Source: Vermamoeba vermiformis
Taxonomy: Eukaryota
Direction: 5' to 3'
Assembly (NCBI GenBank): GCA_045837725.1
Contig: JBEWZL010000011.1
Location: 620,001 to 684,000, forward strand
DNA length: 64,000 nucleotides
The first letter of the stretch is position 1; every line of letters begins with the position of its first letter. Position numbers and translations under genes: made by a program. The notes under the pieces are model-generated. The model had not been told where the DNA came from. It did no database searches and saw only the letters and a list, made by a program, of their open reading frames with translations. Of the stretch, positions 1-43,810 are shown one piece after another.

Positions 1-3000
1 GGGGTGTCAACAGCACACCTGTCAGACTCGGTGACACGGAGCGTGCGGAACAATTCCTCGCATTGACAGATGTCACGCTGGCCTCTCCGCTCACGTGGGT
101 GCGTGTCAAACTGCTGTCCGCGTTCAGTGCGGTGGATGACACGGGACTGCGCGTCAAACTGATCTCGCGCACATCTCCGCACTTGACAGCACTCTTGACA
201 CGTCTGCAAGTGACAGGTGCCACCGTGACACTCGCCGAGGCACGTCTGATCGAGACTTTGCTGCGCTATTATTCCGTCGCCCTGCCGCACCACACCGTGG
301 AGGAAGTGCAGCCCTGGTTGACGGCCATGACATTGCAGTTCGAGAAGTATTTCCGCTCGCTGACACACGACAGCGCGGACGATATTACCATATTTGGCGC
401 TGAGGACCCTACGATCGATCAGAGCGCATTTCCTTATTTGTTCAATCCCGCGCGTCTGGCCCTGGAATGCATTCATGAACCAGTGTACAAGACAGCGTCA
501 CGTGACATTCAAGCCGCGCTGTTCACCACCGTGCTGTCGCTCATGCTGTCAAAACACGCCAAGATTCGCGCCCTGGCACAGAGTGTCATGCGACGGAAAA
601 TTCCGGCCGTGGATCACGCGCTCATCTCGCACGAACTGGCCACGTGCCACCGCGAGATCTTGGCGGTGATTGAACGTCATTCACCGAACAAACGCAAACG
701 TCAAAAGAGGTACAGTACGCCGAATGACACGTGTCACTGTAACTGACATGTTTGACAGCTCTGCCAATGACACGCCGAGCAGCGCCTTGACACCCGAGAT
801 GGAACAAGATCTGGACAGCCATTTGACACGTGTCACTGCCCTGCTCGAGACATTCCAGTACCGACCGCAGTTCTTGTCGCGCGAGCACGTGCCACTGTTG
901 TTTGCCCTGGTAGATCTCATCATCGACCAGCAGCACAGTGTTGGCAAGCGTAAGTCCCTCGCATGTCCAAATAAGGCAATATCTCACGCAGTATCTCCGC
1001 GCAGATCCCTCGATCGAGTACATCACGCAGCAGGTGCTCGGCAGTTTGACACTTGTCACGCAGGCCCTGGTCGATCACGCGCTCACGCAGCAGCAGTTGA
1101 CGGCACTCGGCGCGGAATTTCACGTGGACAGCATCGTGCAGGTGATTCGCGTCAGTCAGGATCCCTCCGTGCAGAAGAACGCGTTGCTATTTTTAGCCGC
1201 AGCAGCACGTGTGTTCCCCGCGCGCGTACTGGAGCACATCATGCCGATATTTACTTATATGGGTGCCAGCAGCGTGCGCTTCGACGACAATTATACATTT
1301 TTGGTCATTCAAAAGACCATCGAGGCCGTGGTGCCAGCACTCGTGCAGTCACGTGACACTTTGGCACCGCTGACGCTGTTCGCCGCATTCGTGCAACACA
1401 TCGGAGAGATCCCCGCGCATCGGAGATTGCTGCTGTTCTCGATGCTGCTAAAAATACTCAGCGCGCAGTACCTCTCCGTGCTGCTGGCACTGCTCTTCTT
1501 CAAGCACGTGCACCTCACCGCCACGGCCACTGCCAAATCGGGCACTGACAGCATCGTAGATTTCTGCAAAGACTTGTGCCTCAAGTTCGAGCCCCACGAA
1601 GTGTTGCAAAGCTTCAATCTATTTTTAGCCAAGTGCAACGACGCCGCCACCTACTTCCAAAAGAAGCGACGCGGAGAATCTGTCGCGGATCTCGAGCGAG
1701 ATTTGGCGGCACATGGCATCGACAAGCACGTGACTGAACACAGCGTGGTGCACGTGACCGGAGATTTCGTGAGATTTGTGGCGAGTTACGTGAGCAGCAA
1801 AGAATTCGTGCAACAAATGATCGATCTCGAAGGCGAGGCCGAAGAACGCACGCAAAGCTTGAGTTTGACACTTTTGGAAACCGCCCTGGTGCATGTCAAA
1901 CAGCTGTCCGCACAACAAGCTGCAAATGACAGCAGTCTGCGCGACGAATTGAAGCGACAAGTGGACGACAGCTACGAACTGATCGATCGCTGCAACGAAT
2001 TGCTGTCCATTCCCTCATTTGTGCACGTGATCGATCGACTGCTGCTGCACGACGACAAACAGCTGCAAAGACGCGCGCTGTTGTTGCTGAACGACAAGGT
2101 GACGCAGCTGCAAAGATCGCTCCACCACAAACACGCCGTGCCGTTCATTAAAATGACGCGTCAGTTGACGGACGTCATCGTGGCCGACATACTGCAGAAC
2201 AACGGCAAAGACTTCACGTTGACAGGTGCCACCGCTGTCAACAAGCAGACAGCCGCGCTCTCGCTCGAGATTATCATTCGCTCGTTCGGTGAACGCAAAG
2301 AATTCGCGGGAGATTTCAAAGAGTTGCTGGCACCACTCACCGCCGCACTCAAAGCTATAAATAGCTCCGCGCAGTCCTCGCCCGCCGATCTCGTACGTAT
2401 CTCACCTATTATTCCGCGTGCCCCACTGACCCCCTTGCCAAATATAGGCACAAAAAGTCAAAGTGAGCTCGTCGCTGCAGCTGTGTCTGGCCTCGCTGGT
2501 CGGTGCACTGGGCCCCGCACTCATCGAGCACGTGAACGAGTTCTATCCCGTGCTGCTCGATGTCATGGATCTCGCGCTCAAATCTCGCGAGGCAGATCAG
2601 GCCCTGGTCGAGTCGTTGCGTCTGTTGCAACTGTCCACGCTGTCCGCACTCAAAGTCATCATCAGTGCCATCGGAAAATTCCTCGGAAAATATCTGGCCC
2701 GCACCCTCACCTCCGTGGTGCACCCAGCCCTGGTTGAGCACCGCAATGCACAACTGCAAAGTCATCTGAGCGAGGTGTTGCGCGTGACCGCAGCGCAGAT
2801 CGATCTGCGACAGTTGCTGTCACCGCTCGCTGTCACGTACCAGCACGCACTCACGCAATATCAAAATCTCCAGGTAACGAGATATACTGCTGCCGTTCAC
2901 TGAACCGATCACTAACTGTTCCCGTGCAGTCCGTGCATCACGTGATCACCTTGCTGGCACGTGTCACCGCAGCCCTGGACAAGAAACACGTGCCCGTGCA

Positions 3001-4000
3001 TCACAAGCCGCTGTTCAAGCTGTATTTGCAACTATTTGATCTGCGTCATGACTGGTGTTCACTGAAACACGTGCCGATTTACTCCGAACACGTGCCCGAT
3101 CACGTGGAGGTCAGAAAGAAAGGCAAAGCTAAGACCGCCGTTCAGTCCCTGAACACGAGTGCGGAACAATTGACCAAAATAGAACAAATCGAGACCGAAC
3201 TGATCGGCGGATTTCTAAATATGGTGATGAAGTTGAACGAGAACACCTTCAAGCCGCTGTACCTCGTCACCATGGAGTGGACGCACGTCAATCACGTGAT
3301 CTCAGCCTCGACCAGCGGCGATGACGCGATGACAGATGTCAATGTGCCACCCGCGCAGCTGTTCAGTCGCACGTACATGTTCTACAAGCTAAATTTGGCG
3401 CTGCAACAACAGCTCAAATCGATCTTCTCGCCGTACCTCAATCACGTGCTCGATCACGTGGCTGCCATCATCGCGCGACCCTCGCTCATCACCGCGGCAG
3501 TCAACACGTGGATGGCGATAGAAATTCCGCTGCTGCACTGGCTGGCCCTGGCACTGCAACAGACTGCTGTCGGTGCCTTCGACAAGCGCCGCTTTGACAA
3601 GCTGTCAGTGCCACTCACGGCCCTGATTGATCGCAGCACTGCACCACCCAGTCCACCGCTCGCGGTCGAGGTGTACCGTGCGCGCGTGACACGTGTCATC
3701 AAAGTGCTGTCCGCGCTGTCACTGGCGGTGCACCACGAGGCCCTGTGGAAGTCACTCAACCACCAGCTGTTGCTGCTCGCGCGACACGAGGACAGTCACG
3801 TGCGCGAGTCTGCAGTGCGCGCCCTGATCGAGCAGTACACCGTGCTGGGCGAGGAGTACTTGCCACTGCTGCCCGAGTCGATTCAATCGATCAGCGAGCT
3901 CATGGAGGACAGCAACAGCGAGGTCGAGGCCTGCACGCTGCAGCTGATCAAGATCATCGAAGATCTGCTCGGTCAGGAGTTTGCGGAACTGCTCAAGTAA
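1..4000 (+). CDS. UTP10: HEAT-repeat U3 snoRNP protein UTP10/HEATR1, 5'-partial, multi-exon
   Basis: ORFs 63-746, 670-, 938-2737, 2463-2903 and 2924-4000 join through short GT-AG introns (e.g. 710-758, 950-1004). Motifs VLEHIMPIFTYMG-RFDDNYTF-VIQKTIEAVVPAL, MVMKLNENTFKPLY (BP28CT) and C-terminal LGEEYLPLLPESIQSISELMED are characteristic of UTP10. Confidence 0.92.
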
Positions 4001-4154: not shown

Positions 4155-5627
4155 ATGGAGTCAGACACTACTGCCCCTGATACTACCGACAACACAGATA
4201 CATTGCGTCCCTATCCCGCCAATGCCTCGGTGCAAGAAGAGTTCGGATGGATCAGCGAGTGGCTGCGTCACCATCAGCTGTTCAATACACTCGATGCACT
4301 GCTCGATGAGGGCATGCAGCTGTTGGACCTCTCCGTCGCGAAGACTGTAGAGCAGCATGTAAGTCCGGTTCAGATCCGATCGTTTCGGAAAATTAAAAAA
4401 CAACTTGTTAAATTTTAATTAGTGCTACCATCTGTCTACTGTAATATTACTAGGACAAATTATTGTGGAAGTTTATTTTATTATTAATTCATTTTGGATC
4501 CTGCTCTCGATCCAGATCGCACTCTGTTCACTGAACTAACCGTTTGCAGGTGTCACAGCCCAGCATTCAACGAGAACAGCCTTTGACACCTGTCATTACG
4601 AGTCCTGCCTCCATTCTGAGCGTGAAATTTCATCCCACCGAACCCTGGCTCGTGACTGGCCACGCCGACAAGACAGTGCGCGTGCACATGTACAAAAAAG
4701 GCAATGACGATCAGCCCTGGGAGAGCTCCCAGATGATGACACTGCCCATCCACCAGGGCGGTGTGGTGAGCACGGAATTTCATCCCACAATCAGCCACAG
4801 ACTGCTGACCTCGAGTCTCGACAACAGCTTTGCAGTCGTGGATTTGTTCCCAGAACAAGAGCAAAGTTATCGCGTGCTGCAACAGACACGTGACCACACC
4901 AAATATGTCATTCGCGCCAAGTGGCACCCGACACGCACGGACATGTTCGTGACAGCAGGCTATGACCATATTTGTACATTGTGGCACCGCGAATCCGAAT
5001 CGCAGCCCTGGTCGAAACAGCACTCGTGGCACTTTGACGGCAATGTCGAGGTACGTGATGCGATCGATGGAAAGGAAATATACTAATATGGCAATGTCAG
5101 GCCGTGGAGTTCAGCCCTGACGGCGAGCAGTTGATCATCGCGTCACGTGGTGTGCCCTATTTGACATATGTCAATCTCGTGTCCATGGCGCAAACACAGG
5201 TCAGCGTCAATGCCCTGGGCGACGATCACGTGAGCTTCAATGTGCTCGATTTGGCAGTCGATGACAAGCACGTGATCGCGTGCACGGACAAGTCACGTGC
5301 CATCATGTACAAATTAGGCACACCATTTCAAGTGCGGAATTTCTTCGGCCTCGAGAACGACGAGTACAGCACACCACGTGTTCAGCTGGATGGCACGGGA
5401 CACCTCTATGCGGTACGTTGTTTGACACGTGTCACTCGCTGACCTCCGACTCACCTGTCATTCAGACTTCACAAACCAAACAGATCTGCGTCTTCGATGT
5501 AGCCACGGAAAAACTCGTTCATGAACTGCGCGGCCACAAGAACATCGTGCGCGACATCGCTCTGCACCAGTCACGTGGTCTGCTGGCATCGTGCTCGTAC
5601 GACAAGACGGTCAAACTGTGGTGTTGA
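4155..5627 (+). CDS. LisH-like plus WD40-repeat protein, multi-exon
   Basis: N-terminal ISEWLRHHQLFNTLDALLDE is LisH-like. WD repeats: SVKFHPTEPWLVTGHADKTVRV, HTKYVIRAKWHP..FVTAGYDHICTLW, GHKNIVRDIALH..LASCSYDKTVKLW. Confidence 0.8.
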
Positions 5628-5768: not shown

Positions 5769-8260
5769 TTAGGCGCGCACGAGTTCGTTGCAGACATTGC
5801 TGCAAATATTGTCCAGCGCGTCGCTCTGCACGCCCGTCTTCAGCGTCACCATTACCTTATTAGGCAAGCTGTCATCGGCCTGTCTCTCGAAGGCGAGCTG
5901 ACACTTGACACGTGAGGCTGAAGAGGAGTCAGTCAGCAACATTGCCTGATTTGGTAATCTCAGTGGACTTACTTTTGTCGGCTCCGAACTTGGCGCGCAC
6001 GACATCTTTGCCCAATTTGGTAATCTTTGCACCATAAGCGATGAGAACATCCGCCGCTTGACTGGCAGTTACACGTGTCATCAGCTCCACTGAGCGCCGC
6101 GCAGGCTCCGGTTTGACACTTTTCGTTTTGAATGTGTTTATGAATGACGTCCACCAATTTCCTTTTTTGGGCGAGTCTGCTTGCGCGTCCACTACTGAAG
6201 AGCAATCAGCAATCACGTGACACTCGCTGGGACACAGTGTTTGACACTTACCTTTGACATCTGCAATCTCGTCGGCAGATTCAACGGGTGCAATGAATGG
6301 GTCGTGATAGTACAACTTGCGCGCGGTAGATTTCTTGGCGGCAGATTGCGATCTCATGCGCGAAGAATTGCGTACTGGCGCGGAGTGGACTTGCGACGGC
6401 TCGCGGCTATTATTAGCAGCAGTCAGGGTCTGTGTCAGTGGCACCCCCGTGCTCGTCTGCGATCGTTTGCGCACCAGCACGGGCATGCGATCACGTGACG
6501 TCGGACCACTCTCCGTGGTGTCCAGATCAATCTCCGCGACGAGCACATGAGTCACGTGACGGTGCGATCGATCTTCACTCGATTCGCTCAACAATTGGCT
6601 GCGTGCCGTCTCGCTCACCGTCAAATTTTCTTCGAATTTCTTGCTGCGGCGCTGCGGTCCTTTTTCGTAATATTTTTCCGCTGGCAACTCGCGACGAGCT
6701 TGCAGCACTTTGTAGAACGCTTTTTCCATGTTATTACTACAATAGGACAGTCAGTTTCCATTTATAGCAAGCAGTGCAATGCTCACCTCTGATTGGTCAG
6801 TCGTTTGATCACGTGATGGCGCGGCCAGCCCAGTGCAGTCATGGTAAGCACAATCTCCTCGTCAATCTCCGACTCGGACATGGACCACCGTGCAGACTCG
6901 TGTTTGACAGGTGTCACATCCTCGTGACTGTCCTCGCTGTCCTCGTCGCTGTCAAGTTGATCGGGCGCGTCAAAGATGAGCTGGGGTGGTGGCAAAGTGA
7001 CATCGTTTTCAGTGAACCACGGATGACGTCTGATCTCCGCGAGGGTGATGCGGTCCTTGGGGTCCACCACTAACATGCGGCGAATCAGATCTTGCACTTC
7101 CGGCGCGACATATTTGGGAATGGAATATTGTCCCGATTTGACCTGCCACCGCTGTCAGTGCCTATAATCAGATATATATGCATCTATGAACTACCTTCAA
7201 CAGCAGTGCTCGGACGTTGTGATCGTCGAATGGCAGTCTGCCAGTGACCAAAGTATACAGAATTACTCCGCAGCTCCACACATCGGACAATTTCCCGTCG
7301 TACTTGCCACCGGAGATTACCTCCGGCGAGGCGTAGTGCGGTGAGCCACAGCTCGTCGCGAGATATTTCTGACTCGGCTGCAGCGCGGCCATGCCTATAT
7401 TTGGTAATGTGTCATTCGCAGTACTCGCCATCGCGTGCCACTTACCAAAATCGGCAATCTTGAGCGTGGTCTTGTCAGCACTGAGCAGCAAGTTCTCGGG
7501 CTTGAGATCGCGGTGGCAGATGTGATTGTGGTGGCAGTACTCGAGACCACTCAGCAGCTGTTTGAAGAAGTGCAATGCTTGCTGCAGCGGCAGACCTCCG
7601 TGCTCGATCAAGTAGTCGAACAATTCTCCGCCCTCCACGTACTCCAAGATCAAGAACCTGTTTGCCAAATTAGGAAATGTTTCGCAGAGTGCAGTGCGGC
7701 ACGTGACTTACAAGTACTTGGAGGTCTCGTACACTTCGTAGAGGCGCAATACATTCGGATGATCTAACAGGCGCTAAATATGGCACGGTCAGTAAGAAGG
7801 TCTTGAGTGAGGCCATTCAATGTCCAAATAAGGAAATATTCCCGCTACAAAGCCGCGAGATTTCAACGTGGTACCATTTTCGAAAAACGAGCCAACAATA
7901 TTATGCATGAAATTCGGTAAATCAAACTTGAATTGGATTATATTTACAAATATTACTAGTTCTCTATGTTGGCGATGTATTCTTAAATATTACGCACCAA
8001 TATCGCTATTTCGCGCTCCATCTTGCGTTTTCTGTCTTTGTTGCCCTCGAGTGCGTCTTTATCAATGATTTTAATGGCTACTTTATACCCCGTTCGCTTG
8101 TGATAGCCGAGCTTTACTTTGCCATTAGATCCGCTGTAATTACAATCAGATTTAGTTTAGACACTTTGACACAGTGCTTAACTAGCATTGATACGTACCT
8201 GCCCAAGGTGCGGCCTAATAAAAAGGGCCCTATATAACGTGTTTTGCCCTCCTCCGCCAT
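5769..8260 (-). CDS. BRSK/SAD/Nim1-like CAMK Ser/Thr kinase with UBA-like region and C-terminal KA1-like domain
   Basis: ATG at 8260 (MAEEGKTRYIGPFLLGRTLG). Motifs VAIKII, LEYVEGGELFDY, HRDLKPENLL, IADFG, TSCGSPHYASPEV, DVWSCGVILY. Stop TAA at 5769-5771. Confidence 0.88.
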
Positions 8261-9412: not shown

Positions 9413-11033
9413 TTACAACATGATCAAGCCGACATCTTCGTTCTTGAGTTGAGGAGCGCGCCAGTTGAACAAGTAGTAGTGCAGATTGCCGTCGCCAGGT
9501 CCGAACTTGAGCTCATCCAAGAACGACTTGTTGGTCATCATATCGAGTGCATTGAAGACATCGTAGCCCTTGTTCTTCGCGATGATCAGCGCGTCTTGCA
9601 TGAGTGCTTTCAAGGGATGTTTCTTGGCCACGGTGTAGAAGGCGTAGGCTGGTTCAGTGAACGATTAGTCACGTGATCAGCACTGCATGCTTACGAGTAC
9701 TGACCTGCGCGCAGTGTGTTGTACTTGGCATTGCCGATGATGCTGGACGGCAAGTTGTAAAAAGAGAAGAAGTCCGTCACTTGTTTGGTCTCTGGATCCT
9801 CCACCACATAGCTCTCCACCACATCCGGTTCCGCGCACAACAACCAATGACGCGTCTCTTCGAGCGTGAATTCGATCACGAGCTTGAACTTGGCGAGGTG
9901 TTCCATGAGCAGTGCGTGCACTTGTTCAATGTCCTCCGCTTTCATGGGCCGCAGACCGGGCAACAAGGGCTGATCGGGCAATTTGTTGCTGCGAATGGCC
10001 ATTTGCATCGTCATATTCTTCTTTAAATATGAGAACCCAACATCGATCAGCTTCTTGGGGTTGAGTGAGCGGTGGTAGTAGCGGCACTGACCGATGGGCG
10101 AGGGCAGCACGACACCAGCAGTGTAGACAGCTTGCCAGACATTGGTCACATTCACGCGGCGTGTGATCTCGCGGATCAGCACTGGCGCCAGTCTCTTGCC
10201 GCGCAGTGATTTGTGCACGCACAGGAAGTTGATTTCGACCATCGGACGTGTTCTGTGCGCGGTCAGTACGAGCCTCTGATTGACACGTGTCACACACAGT
10301 CACGTGACTTACTTGGAGTGCACGCGCACGGCACAGGGAATGGCAGCGATGAAGCCCATGAGCTGCTTGTTGCTCGTCAAGCGCACACCGACGTGCCACT
10401 GCTTCAAGTAGCCGGGGGGCTTGAGTGCCCACTTCAAGAATGCCTTGCTGTAGTCGAAGCGGAACATGCTGTCGTCGTCCTCCACGTAGTTGTTGTACAG
10501 CAGGTCGTAAATGTCTTGCATCTGGTGGTACAATGAGTCGATGGTTGTGCCTACAGAGGGCCTATAGTATACTACTACGCACCTCCTTCTCGTCGTCAAT
10601 GTTGCAGTCGAACCACTCGAAGGCTGCGGGCAAGTTGAGCGGTGTTTGACGCACGTCCTTGACTGGATCCTTGTCAGCATCAATAGGTCCTCCTTCTTCT
10701 TTTCGTTCGACACTCTCCGCTGCAAAATTAGTTAGTATGGCGTTATTAATAGGAAATAGTAACAAATGTTGTGGAGTAGAATTCAAATAAAATTAAAAAT
10801 AATTGTAGAAATAATTCTAAATGACTAATGACGCTATTTATAGTAATAATTATTGAGATATGTGTATTACATTTAATAGAGTAATTTAAAATTAATCCTT
10901 AGGTGATTGCAGCTGGATCTGCACGCTGCAAGTGTTAGTCCAATGTCGCTACATTACCTAAAGGCACCACAGGCTGTGTCTTCCAAAAAGCGTAGTCTTT
11001 TTTGCCTTCCTTCAATGTCTTCTTGTTGCTCAT
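9413..11033 (-). CDS. NMT: Glycylpeptide N-myristoyltransferase, multi-exon
   Basis: Motifs [77 protein letters not shown]. Confidence 0.96.
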
Positions 11034-12628: not shown

Positions 12629-12790
12629 ACTTGCCTTATTTGGATTGAACTAGTTAGTGCATGACAGGTGTCAAACTCGTGCTTGTTACTTCGATGTATT
12701 TTATTGTACAAAATTAAACAAAATTGTCTTGGTGATCAGCGCAGCACTATGTTACAGAAAATTGTTCCGCCAGCGAGTCTATTTTTAGCT

Positions 12791-16435: not shown

Positions 16436-16614
16436 AGTTGGCTCTGCTGTGCTTTGATCCGAATGAACGAAAGAGGAGAAGATTGAAACAAGAAGGGTGT
16501 GTTTTGGTCCAAAATTTGTGGCTGTTCTGTGATTGGTCAAAATTTTGACCGTCAAAGTTTGAGTTAACGAAACAACTTTGTTGACGAACGCGGCGTAGTT
16601 TTTGCGCTACAAAT

Positions 16615-18537: not shown

Positions 18538-18654
18538 ACCTCTTGTACATATTTGTAAGTCATTGCCTAATTGAACTGAAATTTCCTTTGTTCTGGTGAA
18601 AATATTTCTCAGCGGTCCTTTCATTCGTTTTTTTCTAACCCTGCGATTGCCACA

Positions 18655-21195: not shown

Positions 21196-21406
21196 TGATT
21201 GGTTGCACATCACTGGCGAATTTGTAAATAGAAGACACCTCTTTTGTGAATAAAACTCATCGTTCTATCTCTTTGCTTGGAATTTGAGACAGCGTGACCA
21301 GCGTTGATTGCTACGACATTATATCTTACTTGTGCGAGTTTATTTACAACAAATCAGTTCATTCTGAATCAAGGTTACAACGGCCTATTCAACGCTCTTA
21401 ATAATC

Positions 21407-24128: not shown

Positions 24129-24236
24129 TGTCTAATACGAAGTATTGTTGTTGTACATAATTAAAGTTGTAATTCTAATTTACACGTTTATTTACATGTC
24201 ACTTGTTTGGATCGGATCGAACAATCATTTCTTGCC

Positions 24237-30200: not shown

Positions 30201-32662
30201 TCGGGCGAGTTCAGTGTCACGTGCTGTCAAATCGAAGAACTTGATGACAGCTTTGCACTTGTTGAAATCTTTCTCGCGCACGCACATGATCAGCAGCGTC
30301 GTGGGCGAGGCGAGCATTAAATTGACAAAGTGTCTATTTTTAGCTTCAGTGCCGTAATATTTGCTGACATCAACGCCAACTGTCAAACGAAGACTTGCGA
30401 TCAATTCGTAACGCCATTTGAATTCGCGCAAAAATTGTTGCAAAGCTTCTAGTCTGTGTTTGAACTCGCTCGAGGTGTCATGTGAGATGGTGACACGTGT
30501 CAAACACTGATTTGCCAAATCGAGCAATGACTTGACCAAAGCAGGTGTAGCCACAAATAGATCGCGTTGTTTGGGCTCAACATCTTGCCACGCACTCCTT
30601 TTTAGGAAAACAAATGCCAGCAAAGTCTCCGCCAGACCAGCTAATGTTGAGTAGTCTGAAATTTTTGCAATGTAATCAGCTGCCGCGTGATATTGTGTAT
30701 CGAGCACTGCTTGGTCCACATTTGCAGATTTGACCACGTGATCGAACATGGCCATCACTGATTTGACCACAAAATACGTGTTGAGCAGCACGAGATCTTG
30801 TGCTTGTTCGTTGACGGAAATTTCCGAGTGATCGGGATTGGCTGCGAGCAGTTCTAAGACTTGCCGGTCTTCAAGTCTGTGACAGACTGCCTGCAATGCA
30901 AATGCAATTGAATGCACTTTCAATTCGTTGTACAGTGCGTTGGTAATAGCTGTAGTGAACTGTTGCAATGATTGATTTCCTTTTTTAGTCATTTTCTGCG
31001 TGCCAATTTTGATTTCATTCTCGTTGTCCTGCAGCAGCTGTGCTGCCGTCCACTGTGCGACGCGAATGCTGTAGTCTAAAATGTCACACTTCAGCGCCAC
31101 ATCTTTGTCTTTGGCCTGTGTTGCAATAATTAGCACGTGTTAGTTACCAAATATGGCAAATACCTCTTGCTTGCCGCCCTGGTGCCAAAGAATGTTCATC
31201 AAACGAATGCGCGCGTCAATGTCGTTGTCAAACTTGTCCCAGACCATGAGCAGCACGAGTGGTTTCAATCGTTCGAATGGTCGCAGCACCACGGCACATT
31301 CCTCGAATTGCGCGGCATTCACGCACTCCACTGCGCGCGTCAAGACAAACTCGAGGCCGTGTTGATTGGTCACTCGCATCACGTGATAGAAATCTCGCCA
31401 AAATCTGCTCAGCTGCTGCTCGACGAGGGCTGGATCACGTGCCTGACCCTGCAAATCACTCGTCACCAATGCGCGCACGTGATCGAATGCGACATTGAGC
31501 GGTGCGTCTTTGTGCGCACGTGACAGCAGTTCATCTTCAACGCGCGCGAACTGAGCGACGAGTCTGTTGTCGTTGTCAGTGCAGTGCGCCAAGAGGGCCG
31601 AGTAGAGTCGTTGACGCCACGGTCCTGTCTCCTGCTCATTGCCATATAAGGCAATCAGCTGTTTGAACAGCGTCACGAGCTCCTCTGCTTCGAGTGCGGC
31701 ACGGTCGTTGCGCTGCGCTGCATTGAGCAGTTTGACGAATTGCAAGGCCTCTTCGCGGTGTTGCGCACTCAACAGATCGGCGATGAGTTGCGCGGAGAGA
31801 TCTACCAGGGCTCGTGAAGCACGTGGTGCTAGAGCACGTGTCAATGAAGCACCGAGCCCTGGTTGAAGCACTGCCACACTGCGCAGTCGTGACAGCGTGC
31901 CTGACGAGAGAGATTGGGCTGGTGATCGGTTAGTATTTTATTACCATATTTGGAAGTAGCGGTACTCACTGCCTGATTCTGCACTCTCGCTGCGCAATTC
32001 ATGAATAACATTTTCAGTGAACGACTGTAAGATGATCGTGCGTATTAGCGACAAATTTTTTAAACATAATGTAACGCGTACCTCGCTGTCATCAGTGTCG
32101 TTTGAATGCAGCGCTGTTTCGAGCAGAACATCGAATTCGAGCTGTTCAGTGAACGATTTGGGCAAATCGAGCTACAGATAGACATTATTATACACTGTTA
32201 GCATTCAAAGATTCGCAGCAAATTCATCACAAGTAGAATAATTTTCGTCCGAACTTTCTTTATCGTGCCATCACGTAATATTGAATATGAATGAGTTAAA
32301 TGCGTTAATTACCTCAAACTTGCTCGGCAATAAATTTTTGTATTCGACCAGACACAGCCATATCAGATGTGACGTCGAAGGGACAGATTTGGAGAGTAAC
32401 CTATTAAAATATCATAATTAAATTCATCATAAATTATAATATTGGAAAAGTGCGCAATTGTTAATAATAATTACCATTGAGCAGGCGGATCTGACGTGAT
32501 AAATGATTTTAATAGTGCCAAGCATTGTTCGGGTGCTATCTTATGATAGTCAATAATAGATGCTCGTGCTAATTCAAATTGTCCAAGCGACAAGTAATTG
32601 CGGATCAAGATCTCGTATTGTTGTTCTGATCCCTTTTGAAGGAACTGATAACCTTGCTCCAT
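24237..32662 (-). CDS. ZFYVE26: Spastizin (ZFYVE26/SPG15)-like protein, apparently lacking the FYVE domain, many exons
   Basis: Conserved C-terminal blocks: QPLLVVESLLM, YPSAPNHVLATAILDL, LRDELIEEDRM..VWAAWGLSLLKMGKYEQAKEKF, MRDFIRAGLTCI, ALLLCGKLKSAYLSAIK. Confidence 0.85.
25615..25694 (-). other. U12-type (minor) GT-AG intron in the ZFYVE26-like gene
   Basis: 5'ss GTATCCTTTT and branch site TTCCTTAAC close to the CAG acceptor. Removal restores RYMQCI-YYLQNYGT. Confidence 0.88.
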
Positions 32663-32788
32663 TACTTGTTCTTATATATTTCAATCTATGATATGCTTCA
32701 TTTCGTTGTTAGATCCGATTGTGTCATTCAGCTGATCCAAAAAATCAATTAATGCCGCGTACTCCTCTCAACAAGCCTTTATTTAACA

Positions 32789-35535
32789 TCAGTCAACAAG
32801 GGATCCCGGCAACAACTCATAGCCCTGACGACTAGCATTGCGTCGCTTCACGAGCCACACGATGCCGCCAATGACAGCTGCGGCGCCGAGCACGGATCCA
32901 ATCACAATCACCGCCACGACTGCTTTGTGCGTGTCGCAGGCTGAGCCAGTGTACGCGCCCTCGCACTCGCACTCACCGCGCGCATTGCACTGGCCTCTAC
33001 CGCTGCACGTCTCATCAGCCACGCAATAAGTCGCGCACGATACGTCGTAGTAATTGGCTTGACACACGCACGTGCCGTTGTTCTGATCACAGGCACCGTG
33101 CACGCAGTTGGACGACGAACAGACCACTTCGCACTGCGGACCGAACGCATTGGTCTCGCACACACAAGTACCATTAGTTGAGTCGCAAGTGCCGTGTTTG
33201 CAGGTCTTGTAGCTGCAGTACGTGTCGCACTGAGCCCCGTAGTAGCCGTCGTTGCACTCGCAGCGGCCCTCCCACGAACAATAACCATGCACGCACCACG
33301 CACTCGAACACTCCACGTCGCAGTGCACGCCGTAGTAGTGCTCGTCACACGTGCAGCCACCCGAGAGCTGATTGCAAGTGCCGTGCGGGCCACACGTGTC
33401 CTGATCGCAGTAGACATCGCAAGTAGTGCCATAGTAGTTGTGTTCGCATGCGCACTCACCCGTCGTGGTGTTGCAGGTGCCGTGCGAGGAGCAAGCAGGA
33501 CAACGCTTGAACTGACACTCGTCGCCGTAGTACTCGTCATTGCACAAACATCCCGTGGCTGAACATGTGCCGTGCGAGGAGCAATTCGTTGCAGCATTGC
33601 AATAGACCGAGCAGTTCTGTTAAATAGACACTTGTTAGCCAGGATAGATTCACGCCACCTCACGTACAGTTCCGTAGTAATTGGTGCTACAAAGGCAGTC
33701 GCCCAAAGTAGAACAAGTGCCGTGACTCGTGCAAGTAACATTTACATCGCAATATGTGCTGCAATTCTGGGAAATCAAATCGTTAACCAAGATACAAACC
33801 TAATCAGTTGAAACTGTACCTTGCCGTAATAGTTGACGTCACACGCACAAGCACCGACTGAGTCACATGTGCCGTGACTCGAACAGGTCTCATTCGCTGC
33901 ACAATAGGTCGAGCACGTAGCGTCGTAGTAGTTCTGCTCGCACTCGCAGCCTCCAGTGGCATTGTTGCAGGTACCGTGCACACAGGCAGGACACGTCTTG
34001 TACTGACACGTGTCACCGTAGTAGCCCTTGTCGCACTGACAAGTACCACTCGATGTGCACGTGCCGGCATTGGAACAGTTGACTGCACGCGAACAGAACA
34101 GCGAACAGTCCTGAAGTGACATTAGACCCGCAGTGAATGAGAAGAAGCAGGAAGACTTACCTCCAAGTAGTAGTCGGTGTCACACGCGCAGGTACCATTC
34201 GTGCTGCATTGCCCGTGACTGCTGCACGTGGAACTCGCCAGACAGTACCGCGAACAATTGGTGCCGTAGTAATTCGACTAGGAGTAACAATATGAGCCAA
34301 TGATGCAATGCAAATAGGACTATAGACCTCACCTCACAAATGCACTTCCCCGAGTCTGCAGCACAAGAGCCGTGGCCAGTACACGTGTACGAGGCATTGC
34401 AGAATCGGTTGCAGCGGTAGCCGTACCAGTAGTCGTCGCATTCGCAGCGTCCAGTGGTCCTGTTGCAATGTCCATAACCGCAGTCGATGGGACAGAATAT
34501 GAATTGACAGTGATCGCCATAATATGAAGCATCGCAGTAACACGAACCATCGGGGTAACAGCCGCCGTGGCCAGAACAGGTCTTGAAGCGATCGCAGTAG
34601 ACGGAGCAGTTCTGTCACGCGGTCAGTGCCCCTCTCTTATTATGGTTATATATACTACTACTTACCTTCGCGAAATAACCGCTGTCGCACTTGCACGAGC
34701 CATCAGCAGCGCACACGCCCAGACCCGAGCAAGTGGTCGCTGGATCGCAGTAGACCGAGCAGTTCTGACAGCAAGGATATGAGACTTATCGTATTACCCG
34801 ATAAGATAGCGCTCGATCGACTTGGTTACCTGACCGTAATAGCCTGTCTCGCACTTGCAGCCACCGTAGTTGTCGCACGAGCCGTGTCCGGAGCAGGTCA
34901 CATTGGCGCGGCAGTAGTAACTGCACGTGGCACCCCAGTAGTCTGCATCGCACGTGCACTCCCCTGTTGTGTTGTCGCAGTGGACGTGGGGTGAATAGTA
35001 TTGACGGCAATAGGAGTACGGGTCCGGTTGATGATTGCAGTGATCTGAAAGCTCGTTTGGTATTTGGATCGTCGTCGATCTGGCGAACAAATACTGACCT
35101 GAAGTGACATCAACATCTATGGTCAATGTAGCGCTCTCTCCTTCGGTTGTGGTGGCTTTAATACTGCAGCTCAGTGTGCCGATCGCGCTGAATACTCTTC
35201 GATCTACCTGCACAAGAACATCCACTTCGGAAACATTGTAACCAATACTAGGGGAAATATTAATCCCTAGGCCTGTAAAATTATTGCTGTAACTAACAAA
35301 ACGTTTGGATGTGACAGATGGGCTCACAGTTGCCGGAGGAGGAGTTTGTCCACGAAAAGTCGGGCTGCAATGGAAATACCTTCGACAAGGTAGTTTTGTA
35401 AGTATAAACATCTTCGGATGCAGGTAGCGTTATGGAAGCTGTGATCCAATCTGGAGACCATGCGATCCACGTCGAAGAATTGGCTTGACACGCCAGCAGC
35501 AATACAACAGCAACTAATACTATAGAGCGCTGCAT
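32789..35535 (-). CDS. Type I membrane protein with many EGF-like repeats
   Basis: Signal peptide MQRSIVLVAVVLLLACQA. Repeated CsxHGxC...CxC..yYGxxC units. TM VVAVIVIGSVLGAAAVIGGIVWLV. Short tail KRRNASRQGYELL. Confidence 0.88.
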
Positions 35536-35702
35536 GGTCGTGTTTGTCGAAAATAAAATCGGACTAATTCTACCCGAATGTCAGCTGACTTGTGACTGCT
35601 GTCTGTTCGTAAATATCTGCTAAGGCCACATCGCCGTTCTTATAATTGCAGTACCGTACTAATACACATCTAAAATAACATTATTTACTGCTACTATACA
35701 CA

Positions 35703-36307
35703 CTACTTAGCTCGGCTTTTCAGATAATACCATTCTTTGCCGTCAGTACTACGGATCCAACCACTCTTGTGCAGCGAGTCATGCATTCGCGCGTACGGAG
35801 TCCTAGGCTTGCTCTCGCTGCGGCCCTTGCGACCAGCACGTGATGTCTTGCGCTGTCCTTGCAACACTGTTTGGGCAAACTCGTTGGCAACGGATTTGGA
35901 GAAGTGAATCCAGCCATCGTCATCGCGATAACCATTCTCTACGGCGTGGTATATAAAAGAGTCCTCTATCGTCACTCGATGTGCGACAGAAGATTGACTC
36001 GTGCTGCTTTCGTCTTGAGCAGATGCAGATGAGCAAGGTGAAGAGGCTTCATCGTCGCTAGAGTAGACCGGCAGTAGGTGAGGAGTGACCACCATATCAA
36101 CTGTACTATGGACCGGTGCTTCATTAGCATCGACAAAATTGTAGTGCGCTGCAGGCTCAGTGATTGAAAAATAAAAGTCGAAGGCATCGTTATCGACTAT
36201 TTCGTAGCTAAAAAATTCATATTAAATCGGCATCAATTAAAACTAAATTTAATCACTTACCTGGAGGTAAACAAATCTGCTTCAAAGTCGCTGAATTGAA
36301 GTGACAT
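35703..36307 (-). CDS. Hypothetical protein with acidic N-terminus and basic C-terminal domain (possible divergent HSF-like winged helix), 2 exons
   Basis: ATG 36307 MSLQFSDFEADLFTS, then a GTAAG...TAG intron, then SYEIVDNDAFDF running in frame into ORF 35703-36095. Confidence 0.6.
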
Positions 36308-36654
36308 GTTATTGATTTGTTAGGTTGGTACCGGCTCGTGGTAAGCTGTTAATTGCTTCATTTTAATGCTGGCCATTGTTATATATTTTTGCTCTTGTTT
36401 GTTCGCCTGTACTTTCAGCGGAGTTGAATTTGAAAAAACAAAGGAATCACACTTTTGCTCCGTACTGAAAATTCAACAACCATTTTTTGACCAACACTAA
36501 CTAACCAAGCAGTTAAGTAGCTATTCCGAACGATACATCAGCCCAAATTCGAGATTAGTGGCCAAGTTGATTTTTGCAGCCTTGTATCGAAGCAAAAAAA
36601 CTGCACTTTGTTTCTCCTCGCGAGCTGAGCGCAACAACAAACAAACCAAACGTA

Positions 36655-36975
36655 ATGGATTGGCATGCCGTGGGTAAATTTGCTGCAATTAATCCGTCCA
36701 AGTTGATGTGGGAGATCCTTTGGCACAACAACATCCCCACGTTAGTATCATCTGACCGCCGCTATTACAATGACCACAAAATTGTGGACGACACGTTGTA
36801 CTTTTTCCGAGATCTGTGCCAAGGCAAAAAAGAACGAGTGGAACTTATTCCACAAGGTACCTCTGGGGCTTTCTCAGTGATTGTGCGGCAGAATGCAGAG
36901 CTGTATTATTACGATGACTGGGACCTAGCTGATATGTTCATCGCTCGACCGATGACAAATGTTGAATGTAAATAA
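36655..36975 (+). CDS. Intronless hypothetical protein (about 106 aa)
   Basis: First ATG of ORF 36574-36975 in A-rich context. AATA(A) follows the stop. No recognisable domain. Confidence 0.5.
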   Translation: MDWHAVGKFAAINPSKLMWEILWHNNIPTLVSSDRRYYNDHKIVDDTLYFFRDLCQGKKERVELIPQGTSGAFSVIVRQNAELYYYDDWDLADMFIARPMTNVECK

Positions 36976-37156
36976 ATAGAAGGAGACTCTAAAGGTTCAA
37001 ATCAAGTGTAGTACTACACTTAAATTCGCCAGGTAAATGTTTGTTTCATTGATTTAAATCTCAAATCGTGTTGCAGAGAAGTTGCAAATTTGGTCGTGAC
37101 GTAAGCGTTGAAATGAAAACGAATTATTTGCACCATTTCAATATCCTCGCGCTCAG

Positions 37157-37730: not shown

Positions 37731-40582
37731 ATGGAGGGGGTAGATTTAGTTCAAAGGCTAAAGAATCATCCTTTATTCGATCCTAGATCTCAAGATCCAA
37801 CCAGGATCCAACGAGAAGATGTGGGGTCTCCCCTAGCCAAAAATATTTTAGCATTCAATAACAAAGACTTAGAATTATTTGTATATAATGCACCAAAGCT
37901 CCATTTGGTTAACTTAAAGAATATCAAGCTAGGAAAAAATTTTAATTACCAGGTATGTTTTTAATAGCTCCAAAAATCATATTAAATTTTATTTTATATG
38001 GCACACTAAATAAATGCATTAATTATAATATTTTAACATCGTTATAGCGCCTAATAATTTTAATTTGATTATTTATTGCATTTGAAACTATTTGTAATTG
38101 TCTGCACGTACTAACATCACCTATCATCCCAATTATCAGACGCTAAAATGCTCCCCATCGCTGCCGCACGACGTTAGTTACTTCGAGTTCAACAAGAGCG
38201 GCAAGTACCTCTTGGCTGTCAGTCCGCGCAAGTGTGCTGTCATTGAAATCTCTCAACGAGCTCGTTTGGAGATTGCGCGCAATGAGAGCGAAGAACTCAT
38301 CACGCAGACACTGTGGCTGGGCGAGCGACTGTTGGCCCAACAACCCTCGTGTCAGATTGTCAAAGCCAGTTGGCACCCGCTGAGTGACTCGCACGTGGTC
38401 GTATTGACCTCCGATAATACGCTCAGGTAATGCGTTGTATATTATATATGACAGCTAGTCCGTGCTGACAGCTAGATCAGGATATTCAACGTGACGGTGA
38501 ATTTGAACGAGCACGAACAAGTGTACCGATTGAACGAGTCGGGTGCGGACAAGATTATCACATTCACATTCGGTGGCTCAAAACAACCGAGCTGGCAACA
38601 TTTCACGATTTATTTCATGACCGAGGCTGGGTACATTTATTCGCTGTGCCCTGTCATTCCTTATTATTGGTACGTCAGACTATGCAGCACCATCAATAGT
38701 CCGCTAACTGATTCACAACCAGTATTATACCTTCTGCGTTGTTGACAGAGCTGCAAGATCAGTTGCAAGCCGAGTTAGACAATTTTGAAAACAATTTTGA
38801 TGCCGATGAACTCAAACAAAAAGAAGCGTCGCTCGAGTGGCTCACGCACGTCAAAGGAGCTGTCGTGGCCTCTGAAGTCACGCGCAAAGCCACGAACAAA
38901 TTCGCGCTGGACGATGACAGCGACGAAGAGCTGAACATTGGCGATGAAGATGAAGACGGTGCGTCGAACAGCGAAAACAAATGGACGCGCAGTGGATGGG
39001 TGCGCACGAGACCTCCCGAAAGAACCGCAGGACTCGTGCGTCCTGGCCTCGTTGGACCACTGAACATTGGAAACTCGACGACCTCCTTGGCGAACACGGC
39101 GATTGATTTGTTGTGCCTGCCCAGCACTCCGACCACACTGTTGCGCGCACACTCTACGGGCACAGTCGACGTACTGTTGAATTTTGATGAAATTCAGCCC
39201 TATTGGCTACCAAAGGTACGTTAGTTGTCACGTGTTCAGCACTACAGTCGTGTTAATATTGTGACAATTTCAGGGCTATTTCTTGGACGACATTGAACGA
39301 GATGTGCCCGAATTAATGTTGTGGGAGAAAATAGACTTGGGAATCGGCAAAAGAATTCAAGCGAGTGGCAAACAATTCACACCACCGCGCTTGACACTCG
39401 ATCCAGCATTCAAAGACAGATTTTACGCATTTCACAGCGCTGGAGTGCACAGGATCAATTTAGTCTGGCAGAAAGATTTGGAGAAGTATGCGTTTGAAGA
39501 CATGGAAGAAGCGGAGGACTTGCCTGATTTGGGCATGTCGGAGATACAGTACATTCTCAGCAATCCGTAAGTCCGTTACCTGCCTCTGCTTGTAAGCTAA
39601 CGCCTGTACAGCTCCGGAAAAGAATTGCTCGGTCACGTGACAATATCTCACCCGCTGATTGGTGACCTGTTTGGACTCATCTACCAGGGCTGGGTCTGCA
39701 ACTGGGTCGATCAGCGCGTCGTCAACTTGGGCTCGGCGAATATGCTGGGCCTCAGCGCCACACCCGACAGTCTCACAGCCGCTGCACCGACCAGTTCGCT
39801 GATGCAACTCGTGGCTCAGTGGCAACGACTGCAACAGCAAAGCATCACGAAAGTCGGTCACGGGTCTCTGTCGATTCAATCTGAAGACTCGCTCGTGTAC
39901 TTCCTCAAACTGGCACAGATGATGCAAAAGAAGTACATTGTCTTCCTGTACCAAGCACACGAAGAGATCAACACGCGGTACGGCCCGATTGATTTTCACT
40001 GTGACACGTGTCATCTAATAGTCGTTGTTATGCCAGGCTGAGGCTATTGCAAGAACTGAAAGACTCGCAAGAAACGAAATTGAACGATGCCTCGCGTCAA
40101 TTGGAACAAATCGATCAAAAACAACAAGATTTGCAGCTCAAATTAAGACGCACGCTCGAATTTCAAGCCAATCTCACTGCACGTGCCTCCACCGTGCTGC
40201 AAGTCGTGAATACGAGCCAACACAAGTACGCCATGATCGTTCATTGGGCGACTATCTAACCAATTATTATAGGCTATCTAAGGCCGAAACAGATTATTTG
40301 GGTGAATTACGAGAAATGCGCCGCGCCGAAGATTTTTACAGCGATAAAATTGACGAGTTGAAAAAACGCGCGACTAACGTGAAAGACGGCAACAAACCTC
40401 TGCCTCAAATAGCGCCAGCTCAATTAGACAAAATTAAACCTATCATAGAAGACGAGTACGTATTATACGCATATTATTATTAACATTTGTACTCACTGTG
40501 CTGTTATTCTAGACACGCAATGATCGAGCAAGCAATAGCAGATCTGCAGAGTTTGCAAATCAAAGCCGAGAGTCTATTGTAA
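37731..40582 (+). CDS. NUP88: Nucleoporin NUP88/Nup82-like, multi-exon
   Basis: ASWHPLSDSHVVVLTSDNTLRIF, FTIYFMTEAGYIYSLCPVIP, RFYAFHSAGVHRINLVW and a C-terminal coiled coil. Confidence 0.87.
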
Positions 40583-40687
40583 AAACTGTTTTTAATATAA
40601 ACACCATCTCACGCGATCTATCTGCGAGCTCTAATTATAGCATTCGTTGCGACGGGGTCAACTGTTGGCATGACACGTGTCAAAACT

Positions 40688-41602: not shown

Positions 41603-43810
41603 ATGTCGGAAAAAGCTGACAAAGAGGTATTGTGGCCTGTAACTTATGCAACGTAGATCTAACTCGTTGTTTTCAATCTGGACAGCAAGAGAAGAAAGCG
41701 AAGGGACTCAGTCAAAAAACGAGTGAAATTCGCAAGTCATTTAATTTACCACAATCAGAGACTGTTATTCAAGGTCAGTATCGAGAATAACATTAATAAT
41801 GATTATTTGAATTTTGCCATTTTTCGTTACAGATGGAATTCACCCGATATAACTCGTGTCTTATTGACAGTATTTTTATTATATCTATGCACGAAAATTC
41901 TAGCTCTTAATTATTACGACGCTTCCATTTCGATTCTAGAATTTTTTTAAGATCAACGCTTTATTTAATATAATTATATTAATGCTACCAATGCATTATA
42001 TGCATACTAAATAGCGATATGGTTCCGAATAATAAATTGATTTATTTTTTTGATCCGCACAGACTACGCTTGTTCACTGCGAGGAGCACTCGGTCGCTTA
42101 TATGTCACACAGAATTATTTGTGCTTTTGGGGCAATTTCAACATCAAATCTGTGAGTACACTAGCCTATAGACAATGACCTACGAAACGGATCGCGGTTG
42201 CGTAATTGCATTTCAAATTCCGCTCCGTGCTTATGACAGCGCAAGAGTTATTACTAAATATAGTATTGCTATGTAGGAGGCATTTCCGTTCAGAAAAATC
42301 AAAGATCTGACGCTAGAACGCGGAGGTGTGTTTAACAGCGTTGGACTGGCCATGCTCGATGGCTCAAAAGTACGCGAGATATTTTCACTGAACGACGAGT
42401 ATTAATGACCGTTTTAGGTCAATATCGGCGGATTTGTACATTTAGACGAGGCCTTTCAACTGATCAGCTACGTGTGGCAGAATCCTCCGACTTACGTCTC
42501 CTTCGCACAACAGCAACAACAGCTGTTCGAGAGTGACAGTCGCAAGTCAGCACGTGAGTGACTAAATTTAGCCGCGTGGAGTGTACTGGATGCTAATTGA
42601 CACGTGTCAAACACAGGCCCAGGCTCGAGTCAGGTGCAAGAACAGATCGATCAGGGCCCGCAAGTCGATGTCGAGACCTCCAAACGCGCCCTGGCCCTCG
42701 CCAACGAGATCTATCAGACCTCGAGCGAATCACTCGTGCAACTCGCCGAACAAGGAGGTACGTGTCACGTGCTGCAGTGCTTGGAGCGCTAATGTGTTGT
42801 TGTGCAGAGACGTTGGATCGCATTGAAAGCAACTTGAACAACATTCACTACAACCTCGACCAGAGCGACAGATTGTTGCGCGGCATTGAGTCGTTGCCCG
42901 CGTACATTGGCAACGCGTTGAAGAAGAAGAAACGACCGCCCCCACCTGCCCCTGTCAAGAACGATCACTCGGTACGTCAATTAGATCGTGTTGTTGAAAG
43001 TTCCGTCTCATTAATCGCGTCCTGCAGATTAACATTAAAAAAGCACCGACTCCGCCCATGGACATTGAGATTTTATGCAAGAACAAAGACGATAGTTGTA
43101 TCCTTATTCATACTACTCTTACGGCAATTCTTCTGCGTTAAATACCACAAAATTCTCCTTGACCCCTAACCACCACTAGTCTCCCAAGCACTGCTGCGCC
43201 TCTACGACGCAGAATTCAGCTGCATAGACCCTGACACTGGCAAACTCTTGCCGCGCACTCAGACGTGGAAGTACACCGAGATTGATTCGGTGGTGATGCG
43301 CGCACGACACCAGCACATGGACATTCGATTCAAGAACGGTCTCGAACGATTCCGCTTGATGTCTTCGTACCTGCAAGTGATCACCAACGAGATTGTGTTG
43401 CGATTGAAAGAGTCACAAGGAGACGTGCAACAACCTGTCACCATCAAAGTACAGTTCGAGCCTGGCGTGAAACAATTTGAGTACGGTGATCCGCGCATCT
43501 CCGTGCAGCCGACACGTGTGCGCGATGGAGGTCAGGGCGGTGGCCCTGGATTTTACCGCAAAGATGCCGGCAAGTCTGCGTCACAACTGCTCACCAACAA
43601 CGCGTCACAAAAGGTGCGAGAGGATTTAGATTTGACAGACCAACACTTGGACGAAATATCGCGGCTAGTCGATGGTGTTGGTGACATGGCGGTGACGATG
43701 AATGACACGCTCGGCAGACAACAGGTTCAGATCGAACGCATCGAAGTACTGACCGAAAACGCCAATACTCGTATTCAGAATAGTAACCAACGCATTGACA
43801 AGCTGCTTTA
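41603..43810 (+). CDS. GRAM domain plus SNAP-25-like Qb/Qc SNARE with a folded linker domain, multi-exon
   Basis: GRAM: FNLPQSETVIQDYACSL..GRLYVTQNYLCF. Qb: SLVQLAEQGETLDRIESNLNNI..LRGIES. Qc: DQHLDEISRLV..LGRQQVQIERI..NQRIDKLL. Confidence 0.82.
43098..43179 (+). other. U12-type GT-AG intron in the SNARE gene
   Basis: 5'ss GTATCCTTA and branch-like TTCTCCTTGAC (43153-43163). Removal gives KNKDDS-F-SQALLRL in frame. Confidence 0.78.

Follow-up and report, generated by a model that had tools for sequence, protein, structure and literature searches.

A highly iterated 12-bp palindrome in the gene bodies of Vermamoeba vermiformis, possibly the site of a dimeric DNA-binding protein

We describe a 12-bp palindrome, TGACACGTGTCA, that is present in 18 exact copies in a 64-kb stretch of the genome of the amoeba Vermamoeba vermiformis (GenBank assembly GCA_045837725.1, contig JBEWZL010000011.1, positions 620,001 to 684,000 of the forward strand; hereafter the window, with positions counted from its first base). 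The palindrome is real and highly iterated, it is the optimal form of a dyad site TGACA-NN-TGTCA, and it is a feature of transcribed DNA that is nearly absent from intergenic DNA of equal G+C. Our favored, though still tentative, reading is that a dimeric DNA-binding protein recognizes it, as a site limited to transcribed regions and maintained by selection. All sites are listed in Table 1, together with other features of the window.

An exact string scan recovered every copy that the original prediction had listed by eye, each at the same coordinates, and found no further copy in the 64 kb. The last copy ends at 42609 and the remaining window has none, so that the prediction also stands in finding no copy in the minus-strand ribosomal DNA (rDNA) unit (54796–61372); there is likewise none in the window's tRNA. 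Gaps between successive copies range from 99 to 5,998 nt, with no period visible in the spacing of the 18 (both judged by eye). The over-representation, initially reckoned from equal base frequencies, survives more demanding nulls. Dinucleotide-preserving shuffles (n = 100) gave a mean of 0.03 copies and never more than 1; Markov models of orders 0–5, trained on bases 1–44000 with the copies included, expect 0.003–0.9 copies, and no more than 0.13 once the copies are taken out of the training sequence. In the 30,072 nt of predicted coding sequence (CDS), which hold 4 copies, 200 synonymous-codon shuffles gave a mean of 0.06 and a largest value of 1. Imperfect copies are fewer than perfect ones, with 8 at one mismatch and 10 at two.

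Twelve of the copies lie in canonical GT..AG introns of 44–63 nt and five in exons; the remaining copy is in a 3′ flank where two genes converge. This division, first made by eye, is now reproduced by hand reading together with our own gene model. That model is a small splice-aware gene finder trained on the window, and it recovers six of the nine RNA-supported introns; an alternative enumeration of introns by open-frame continuity was set aside because its 1,470 candidates were too noisy. Density in the 77 short introns (4,589 nt) is 2.69 copies/kb, as compared to 0.12/kb in the rest of the first 54 kb, a difference of ∼22-fold, and about one intron in six holds a perfect palindrome. By class of the gene model, introns (5.9 kb) have 12 copies, exons (30 kb) have 4, and the remaining 18 kb have 2; the latter two are a copy in an exon missed by the model and the copy in the 3′ flank. 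Base composition cannot account for the contrast between introns and intergenic DNA, since the G+C of these model classes is 0.40 and 0.41, respectively.

Along the genes, sites fall at 17–96% of gene length (a hand calculation from gene spans), and within the window we found no 5′ bias and no site in a promoter, which argues against a promoter-proximal role or one in intron-mediated enhancement. Nor is there an obvious regulon, because the window genes with Pfam names (HEATR1-like, WD40, D123, CCCH zinc finger, ribosomal protein S8e, M16 peptidase, and RasGEF) are housekeeping genes of unrelated functions; a PDB sequence search with the D123 exon returned no match. The RNA reads at hand bear the same species label but are only 88–95% alike, and hence come from a diverged relative. 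Among the 15 of 25 joints listed, one RNA skip matches the motif intron 20486–20544 exactly, a 59-nt skip fits the motif intron 17760–17818 with a displacement of 4 nt, and another fits 18249–18300 approximately.

The palindrome is best understood through the wider dyad pattern TGACANNTGTCA, that is, TGACA-NN-TGTCA, which occurs 28 times where 0.16 are expected. When the inverted arrangement TGACA-Nk-TGTCA is counted at each spacing, all 28 stand at k = 2, and the other values of k between 0 and 10 yield 0 or 1 each; neither everted nor direct arrangements rise above background despite the 268 single half-sites in 54 kb. The half-sites and their spacing are strict, and the center is the loosest part: its dinucleotide is CG in 18 of the 28, CC/GG in 5, GA in 2, and CT, TA, and GC in 1 each, with CA and TG not found at any of the 28. 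The ten copies with a center other than CG are far above chance, and 6 of the 8 one-mismatch variants differ solely at positions 6–7, the two central bases. Symmetrized flanks favor A at +1 (15/36) and T at +2 (17/36), and a 16-mer form is included in Table 1.

CG is preferred at the center where no other constraint acts. Perfect, one-mismatch, and two-mismatch copies number 12, 1, and 1 in introns, and 4, 6, and 9 in exons. Coding need shapes the exonic copies, whose center follows the required amino acid. Four of the five exonic 12-mers are framed xTG ACA CGT GTC A (T-R-V) and the fifth GAC ACG TGT (D-T-C), while the remaining reading frame opens with the stop codon TGA; eight of the ten copies with other centers are exonic and read (L/M/V)-T-x-V. 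The pattern TGACANNTGTCA as a whole is found 12 times in CDS, as compared to 0.27 under synonymous shuffling.

Sites are also conserved in a relative. We scanned metagenomes for the motif followed by AAYRCAG and obtained 14 loci; each was chosen for one copy, so that only extra copies count. One of these contigs, L012 (3,186 nt), is the ortholog of window positions 16612–19735, with 75.6% identity overall, 70–86% in exons, and 37–40% in introns that lack the motif. The 12-mers at 18095 and 18282 are unchanged and in register in L012, and the rest of intron 18249–18300 is scrambled around its intact 12-mer. The CC-centered intronic copy at 19677 lies within 16 identical nucleotides, and the site at 17800 reads TGACACGTGCGTCA in L012, its one difference being a 2-nt insertion. 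Hence, three of the four intronic sites are exact in introns that are otherwise randomized, when the chance of a 12-mer surviving at 40% identity is ∼2 in 100,000 per site. Because the other intron sequence has been randomized, either selection or a site-restoring process must keep these sites. Among these contigs with canonical short introns, L002 (= L006) has 4 copies in 1.4 kb, and L003, L009, L012, and L014 have 2 each, in every case including the one used for selection; from the additional copies, the palindrome appears not to be limited to this locus; L004, L005, L007, L008, and L013 have a single copy each and were not used.

Further observations stand apart from this test. Over 17001–37000, the match to metagenome contigs of related strains often breaks off no more than 4 nt from the edge of a motif (17811, 18091, 24549, 24552, and 29789), so that the 12-mer may form an identical island within diverged introns; we have not used this as evidence. 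A 204-nt AT-rich first intron at 18994–19197 (+) is 65% identical to its counterpart in L012, as compared to 37–40% for the other motif-less introns, and it probably carries regulatory sequence. Parts of the window are also present in DNA runs from water, aquifer, and soil.

We favor a reading in which two inverted TGACA half-sites, exactly two bases apart, would be recognized on double-stranded DNA by a dimeric sequence-specific protein, presumably a homodimer; the reverse-complement symmetry, strict spacing, and loose center all point this way. Once bound inside gene bodies, such a protein may act on chromatin or on passing transcription, for example as a nucleosome-phasing barrier or by marking the cell's own genes. 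It would not act as a promoter element, since promoters lack the sites and no 5′ bias is seen along genes. Introns, free of coding constraint, hold perfect CG-centered copies. The original prediction had put forward three mechanisms, namely an abundant chromatin protein, a CpG-centered methyltransferase or repair system, and self-recognition against viral DNA; binding by an abundant DNA or chromatin protein fits best among them.

The closest known site architecture is by analogy that of the TALE homeodomains (TGIF/MEIS), which likewise has inverted TGACA half-sites with a 2-bp spacer; in the excerpted account of the TGIF1 crystal structure (PMC6158717), one homeodomain occupies each TGACA half of the canonical site ATTGACAGCTGTCAAT. 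By the same excerpt, the likeness to the TGIF1 site extends to the flanks favored in the window, with A at +1 and T at +2, and to the window copy at 29218, an identical 12-mer TGACAGCTGTCA. The window sites differ in their center, which is CG in 18/28 and GC in only 1/28, and in lying in the introns and exons of many housekeeping genes, not in promoters and enhancers.

Several points weigh against the dimeric-protein reading. The preferred center is CG, whereas the TGIF/MEIS site has GC; the binding protein is itself putative, and so are the downstream functions proposed for it, in chromatin or self-marking. The boundaries between introns and intergenic DNA rest on our rough gene model, with its six of nine RNA-supported introns. 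The conservation test consists of one 3.2-kb ortholog with four sites, and a process that repaired mutated sites would be just as likely to leave them conserved at orthologous positions. Finally, restriction to transcribed DNA and recurrent placement relative to splice sites (7 nt before the 3′ splice site, or 9–15 nt past the start of the 5′ splice site) would also be expected of an RNA-level intron signal.

Such a signal would act in pre-mRNA, by supplying or flanking a branch site, by binding a splicing factor, or by forming a 12-bp duplex between two copies, and we consider this unlikely, although it would suit both the ∼22-fold higher density in introns and the near absence from intergenic DNA, whose G+C is the same. 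Of the 12 intronic copies, three continue with AAYRCAG and then the exon, so that 16 nt separate the A of their TGAC from the 3′ splice site, and RNA-supported introns without the motif have CTAAY branch-like sites 14–19 nt from the 3′ end (hand count). A C precedes the motif at 17800, where ACTGAC is a likely branch site, and in both L012 orthologs of 3′-proximal sites, forming CTGAC; moreover, a duplex between two copies has a predicted free energy of −19.3 kcal/mol. However, the other nine intronic copies are scattered 8–34 nt from the 3′ end of introns that have their own CTRAY branch candidates, and reverse-complement symmetry is meaningless for a single-stranded RNA signal. Copies exist also in exons, with the CDS enrichment of 12 versus 0.27 given above, and in the 3′ flank, while center variants without self-complementarity are enriched and one of them is conserved. 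RNA structure gives no further support: motif introns show no excess folding (mean z-score −0.04), the hairpin of the motif alone reaches only −2.1 kcal/mol, and self-pairing of the motif appears in 2 of 12 predicted folds.

The palindrome is accompanied by a second dyad motif, the CArG-like box CCWWWWWWGG, which we take to resemble MADS-box (SRF/Mcm1) sites. It occurs 24 times as compared to 2.3 expected, with 10 occurrences in the 77 short introns, where its density (2.24/kb) is ∼8-fold that elsewhere (0.28/kb); about one intron in eight has an exact box. It often takes the form TTTCCTAATTTGGCAA, and the introns 7658–7711 and 28245–28299 share the 18 nt CATTTCCTAATTTGGCAA. Since this motif is also enriched and intron-biased, it suggests that introns here host dimer-type DNA sites in general. 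Extended further, the two motifs might form a gene-body code, with TGACA-CG-TGTCA and CCW6GG in tiny introns and degenerate forms in exons, whose abundant sequence-specific proteins would set chromatin phase over units the size of exons or distinguish the cell's own transcription units from foreign DNA, and introns would be kept partly as carriers of the code; we offer this as speculation that is improbable as it stands.

The original prediction had also likened the palindrome to HIP1 (GCGATCGC) of cyanobacteria (PMC4390886 and PMC5861425, both in excerpt), which is by analogy the nearest match in abundance. As described in those excerpts, HIP1 is likewise a short palindrome hundreds of times over-represented, present about once or more per gene, found within CDS too, and conserved. 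The window palindrome differs in being eukaryotic, 12 bp long, ∼22-fold denser in introns, and rare in intergenic DNA; its central dinucleotide is also dispensable, whereas HIP1 is defined in these excerpts by its internal methyltransferase targets. In a HIP1-like process, a methyltransferase acting on the CpG-centered palindrome or on its CACGTG core, combined with a mismatch-repair bias that perfects near-matches, would let copies accumulate that have no function of their own; the excerpt of PMC4390886 ties HIP1 to orphan methyltransferases.

Several features of the window would suit such a process. One-mismatch copies are outnumbered 18 to 8 by perfect ones, the deamination products CA and TG are missing among the center variants, and a CpG observed/expected ratio of 1.16 signifies no CpG decay. 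CACGTG is the commonest hexamer, at 120 in 54 kb as compared to 11.8 expected by composition, when its single-base neighbors reach 32 at most; CATATG is depleted (3 versus 14.5) and CACATG/CATGTG is low (18 versus 26). In CDS, CACGTG occurs 78 times against 25.8 ± 3.8 under synonymous shuffling, a 3-fold excess, and 30 of the 106 CGT arginine codons in predicted CDS sit in xCA-CGT-Gxx. Of 11 CACGTG in the window part of the orthologous 3.2 kb, 6 are common to both sequences and five are private to the window, the aligned letters of L012 at these five being CACGCG, CATGTG, CACGTT, CGTCTG, and CACGTA; L012 has only the 6 common ones and none of its own. The asymmetry, as yet unpolarized, appears directional.

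We nonetheless disfavor a CpG-centered methylation and repair drive and judge it decidedly unlikely as the source of the 12-mer. The methylated base would lie in the central dinucleotide, where the element is least constrained, and CC-, GG-, GA-, TA-, and GC-centered copies are enriched, one of them conserved in the ortholog; the central CpG is thus not an essential part. The analogy is weak on these same grounds, with 6 of 8 one-mismatch variants at the center, ten enriched copies with centers other than CG, and a conserved CC copy. Repair bias centered on CpG leaves the strict half-site spacing unaccounted for, and a genome-wide mutational drive would not predict that the 12-mer is almost missing from intergenic DNA of the same G+C. 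A separate pressure or mutational drive toward CACGTG could, however, explain why the dyad site prefers CG at its center.

CACGTG is the E-box/G-box, the site of bHLH and bZIP factors. All cores of the window sites are CANNTG by construction, and the preferred core, CACGTG, is itself enriched ∼10-fold. Here, however, the outer TGA...TCA is the most constrained part and the center, which defines the classes of bHLH sites, the least; the 12-mer is also intron-biased, unlike the other CACGTG of the window, which has a density of 2.49/kb in exons, 1.88/kb in introns, and 0.89/kb in the rest. Among the papers listed for it, the palindromic form GACACGTGTC turns up in plant stress-promoter (abscisic acid-responsive element, ABRE-type) studies and constructs. 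We did not find TGACACGTGTCA described as a genomic repeat in the full-text literature, where matches to the 12-mer were unrelated primers, and searches of that literature on the 12-mer, the 10-mer, and amoeba or intron motifs gave no equivalent, in agreement with the earlier statement that none was known to be described from amoebae.

That the copies are what is left of a tiny mobile element (a miniature inverted-repeat transposable element, an introner, or a 12-bp insertion), whether as remnants or as footprints, is very improbable, for although there are many identical dispersed copies, palindromes look like abutting terminal inverted repeats, and repeated introner elements with inverted repeats are reported from other protists (Amoebophrya, in the excerpt of PMC7789003), target-site duplications are missing (no flanking direct repeat exceeds 2 nt, a length reached at 2 of 18 sites), the 36 half-flanks have a mean identity of 27%, the position of the motif in its intron varies between ordinary GT..AG splice sites, the 34004 copy is no insertion but coding sequence within a regular Cys-rich repeat, center-variant exonic copies follow coding need, and sites are exact where the surrounding intron has decayed, the opposite of what a decaying element would show. 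The unrelated flanks and the missing duplications uphold the earlier judgment that this is no transposon remnant.

Introners with inverted repeats are, by analogy, the nearest repeated-intron system: in Amoebophrya, and in Micromonas and Aureococcus as cited for them in the excerpt of PMC7789003, a repeated sequence with inverted symmetry likewise occupies many protist introns. Those introners, so far as that excerpt describes them, combine direct repeats with inverted repeats at both ends of the intron, and members of a family resemble each other over their whole length, whereas the window 12-mer is contiguous, varies in internal position, and sits in otherwise unrelated canonical introns with no flanking duplications. 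We file the element under neither HIP1 nor introners, but as a protein-type dyad site with an unusual, conserved, and intron-centered distribution.

The DNA uptake sequences of Neisseria and Haemophilus are bacterial, need not be palindromes, and are tied to natural transformation. Like the window element, they are dispersed words of 9–12 bp, found about once per kb and inside genes; no evidence from the window bears on uptake.

Tailed phages supply a further comparison. Eight contigs (L028 [= L001], L039, L046, L047, L052, L073, L081, and L087), identified as phage by matches to tail sheath, tube, baseplate J, and capsid E proteins, carry TTTGACACGTGTCAAA between genes. Of 34 phage copies, 30 lie between open reading frames of at least 100 residues, and several are 2–6 nt upstream of the next ATG, at the position of a ribosome-binding site. 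This is probably an unrelated, convergent use as a regulatory site, but because this unrelated group of tailed phages uses it between genes, TGACACGTGTCA can serve as a protein operator-type site. We accordingly dropped L001 as a multi-copy relative, since it is one of these phage contigs, and rejected the multi-copy contigs of the viral scan as amoeba viruses, since they are bacteriophages. In 21 kb of a giant-virus record around its N-myristoyltransferase gene, there are 0 copies, a count that is uninformative at 25% G+C.

The window has an N-myristoyltransferase gene of its own (9413–11033, minus strand). One of its exons shares 96% identity with a protein from a collection of protist transcriptomes, and 74% with the Orpheovirus enzyme as compared to at most 68% with other cellular homologs, a sequence relationship that suggests exchange of the gene between host and giant virus. 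Orpheovirus was isolated on Vermamoeba. Elsewhere in the window, the rDNA unit on the minus strand comprises the large-subunit (LSU), 5.8S, and small-subunit (SSU) rRNA genes, the last with a group I intron; an 18-bp array and a 199-bp repeat look like rDNA spacer repeats. One of two introns that look U12-type, 25615–25694, is backed by an 80-nt RNA skip.

Table 1. Palindrome copies, center variants, and other features of the window. Intron coordinates of sites come from hand reading, our own gene model, or both; for these sites, the strand is that of the gene.
Feature	Position	Strand	Context
Exact 12-mer	725–736	+	49-nt intron 710–758, HEATR1-like gene
Exact 12-mer	824–835		Exon of HEATR1-like gene, frame L-T-R-V-T
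Exact 12-mer	3687–3698		Exon of HEATR1-like gene, frame V-T-R-V-I
Exact 12-mer	5423–5434	+	53-nt intron 5413–5465, WD40 gene; 10 nt past 5′ splice-site start
Exact 12-mer	10281–10292	−	60-nt intron 10253–10312, N-myristoyltransferase gene
Exact 12-mer	11913–11924		Exon of D123-family gene, frame M-T-R-V-N
Exact 12-mer	17800–17811	+	59-nt intron 17760–17818, M16 peptidase gene; 7 nt before 3′ splice site
Exact 12-mer	18095–18106	+	48-nt intron 18086–18133
Exact 12-mer	18282–18293	+	52-nt intron 18249–18300
Exact 12-mer	20506–20517	+	59-nt intron 20486–20544; GT..AG skip backed by RNA
Exact 12-mer	24538–24549	−	59-nt intron 24515–24573, large 21-exon gene
Exact 12-mer	27375–27386	−	Predicted intron 27349–27411, large 21-exon gene; 5′ boundary uncertain
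Exact 12-mer	29775–29786	−	59-nt intron 29741–29799
Exact 12-mer	30491–30502	−	Exon of large gene, frame L-T-R-V-T
Exact 12-mer	34004–34015	−	Exon of Cys-rich EGF-like repeat gene, frame G-D-T-C-Q; gene missed by own model
Exact 12-mer	40002–40013	+	Predicted 59-nt intron 39978–40036
Exact 12-mer	40671–40682		3′ flank between two convergent genes, just beyond minus-strand stop codon
Exact 12-mer	42598–42609	+	63-nt intron 42554–42616; 7 nt before 3′ splice site
Center variant TGACAGATGTCA	64–75		Exonic
Center variant TGACACTTGTCA	1047–1058		Exonic
Center variant TGACAGATGTCA	3330–3341		Exonic
Center variant TGACACCTGTCA	4584–4595		Exonic
Center variant TGACATATGTCA	5162–5173		Exonic
Center variant TGACAGGTGTCA	6905–6916		Exonic, kinase gene
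Center variant TGACAGGTGTCA	12662–12673		3′ flank of D123 gene; 28 nt after CCTTATTTGG box
Center variant TGACACCTGTCA	19677–19688	+	Intron 19641–19701; 16 nt TTTGACACCTGTCATT same in ortholog L012
Center variant TGACAGGTGTCA	26666–26677		Exonic
Center variant TGACAGCTGTCA	29218–29229		Exonic; same as core of published TGIF1 site
16-mer form of dyad site			ATTGACACGTGTCAAT
CCWWWWWWGG box (example)	7665–7674		
CCWWWWWWGG box (example)	25671–25680		
CCWWWWWWGG box (example)	28273–28282		
CCWWWWWWGG box (example)	31147–31156		
U12-type-looking intron	25615–25694	−	5′ end GTATCCTT; TTCCTTAAC or TCCTTGAC near 3′ end
U12-type-looking intron	43098–43179	+	5′ end GTATCCTT; TTCCTTAAC or TCCTTGAC near 3′ end
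69-bp unit, 2.1 repeats	53844–53991		Overlaps tRNA 53803–53873
Group I intron in SSU rRNA gene	59789–60129	−	Rfam RF00028, 103.9 bits
199-bp repeat	62473–63005		
Array of ∼49 copies, 18-bp unit CCACGGAAATTTAGGTGC	63035–63957		Upstream of rRNA genes

Short spliceosomal introns are usually seen as spacer beyond their splice signals, yet something reads this palindrome, since it is kept at orthologous positions after the rest of the intron has been randomized. Should a repair drive maintain it instead of a bound protein, HIP1 would have a eukaryotic counterpart in this palindrome. If a DNA-binding dimer is what reads it, this little-studied amoeba would have a dense and conserved class of protein sites that is restricted to gene bodies; this would bear on the retention of introns and on the organization of chromatin over genes, and may bear on how a giant-virus host tells its own DNA from foreign DNA.

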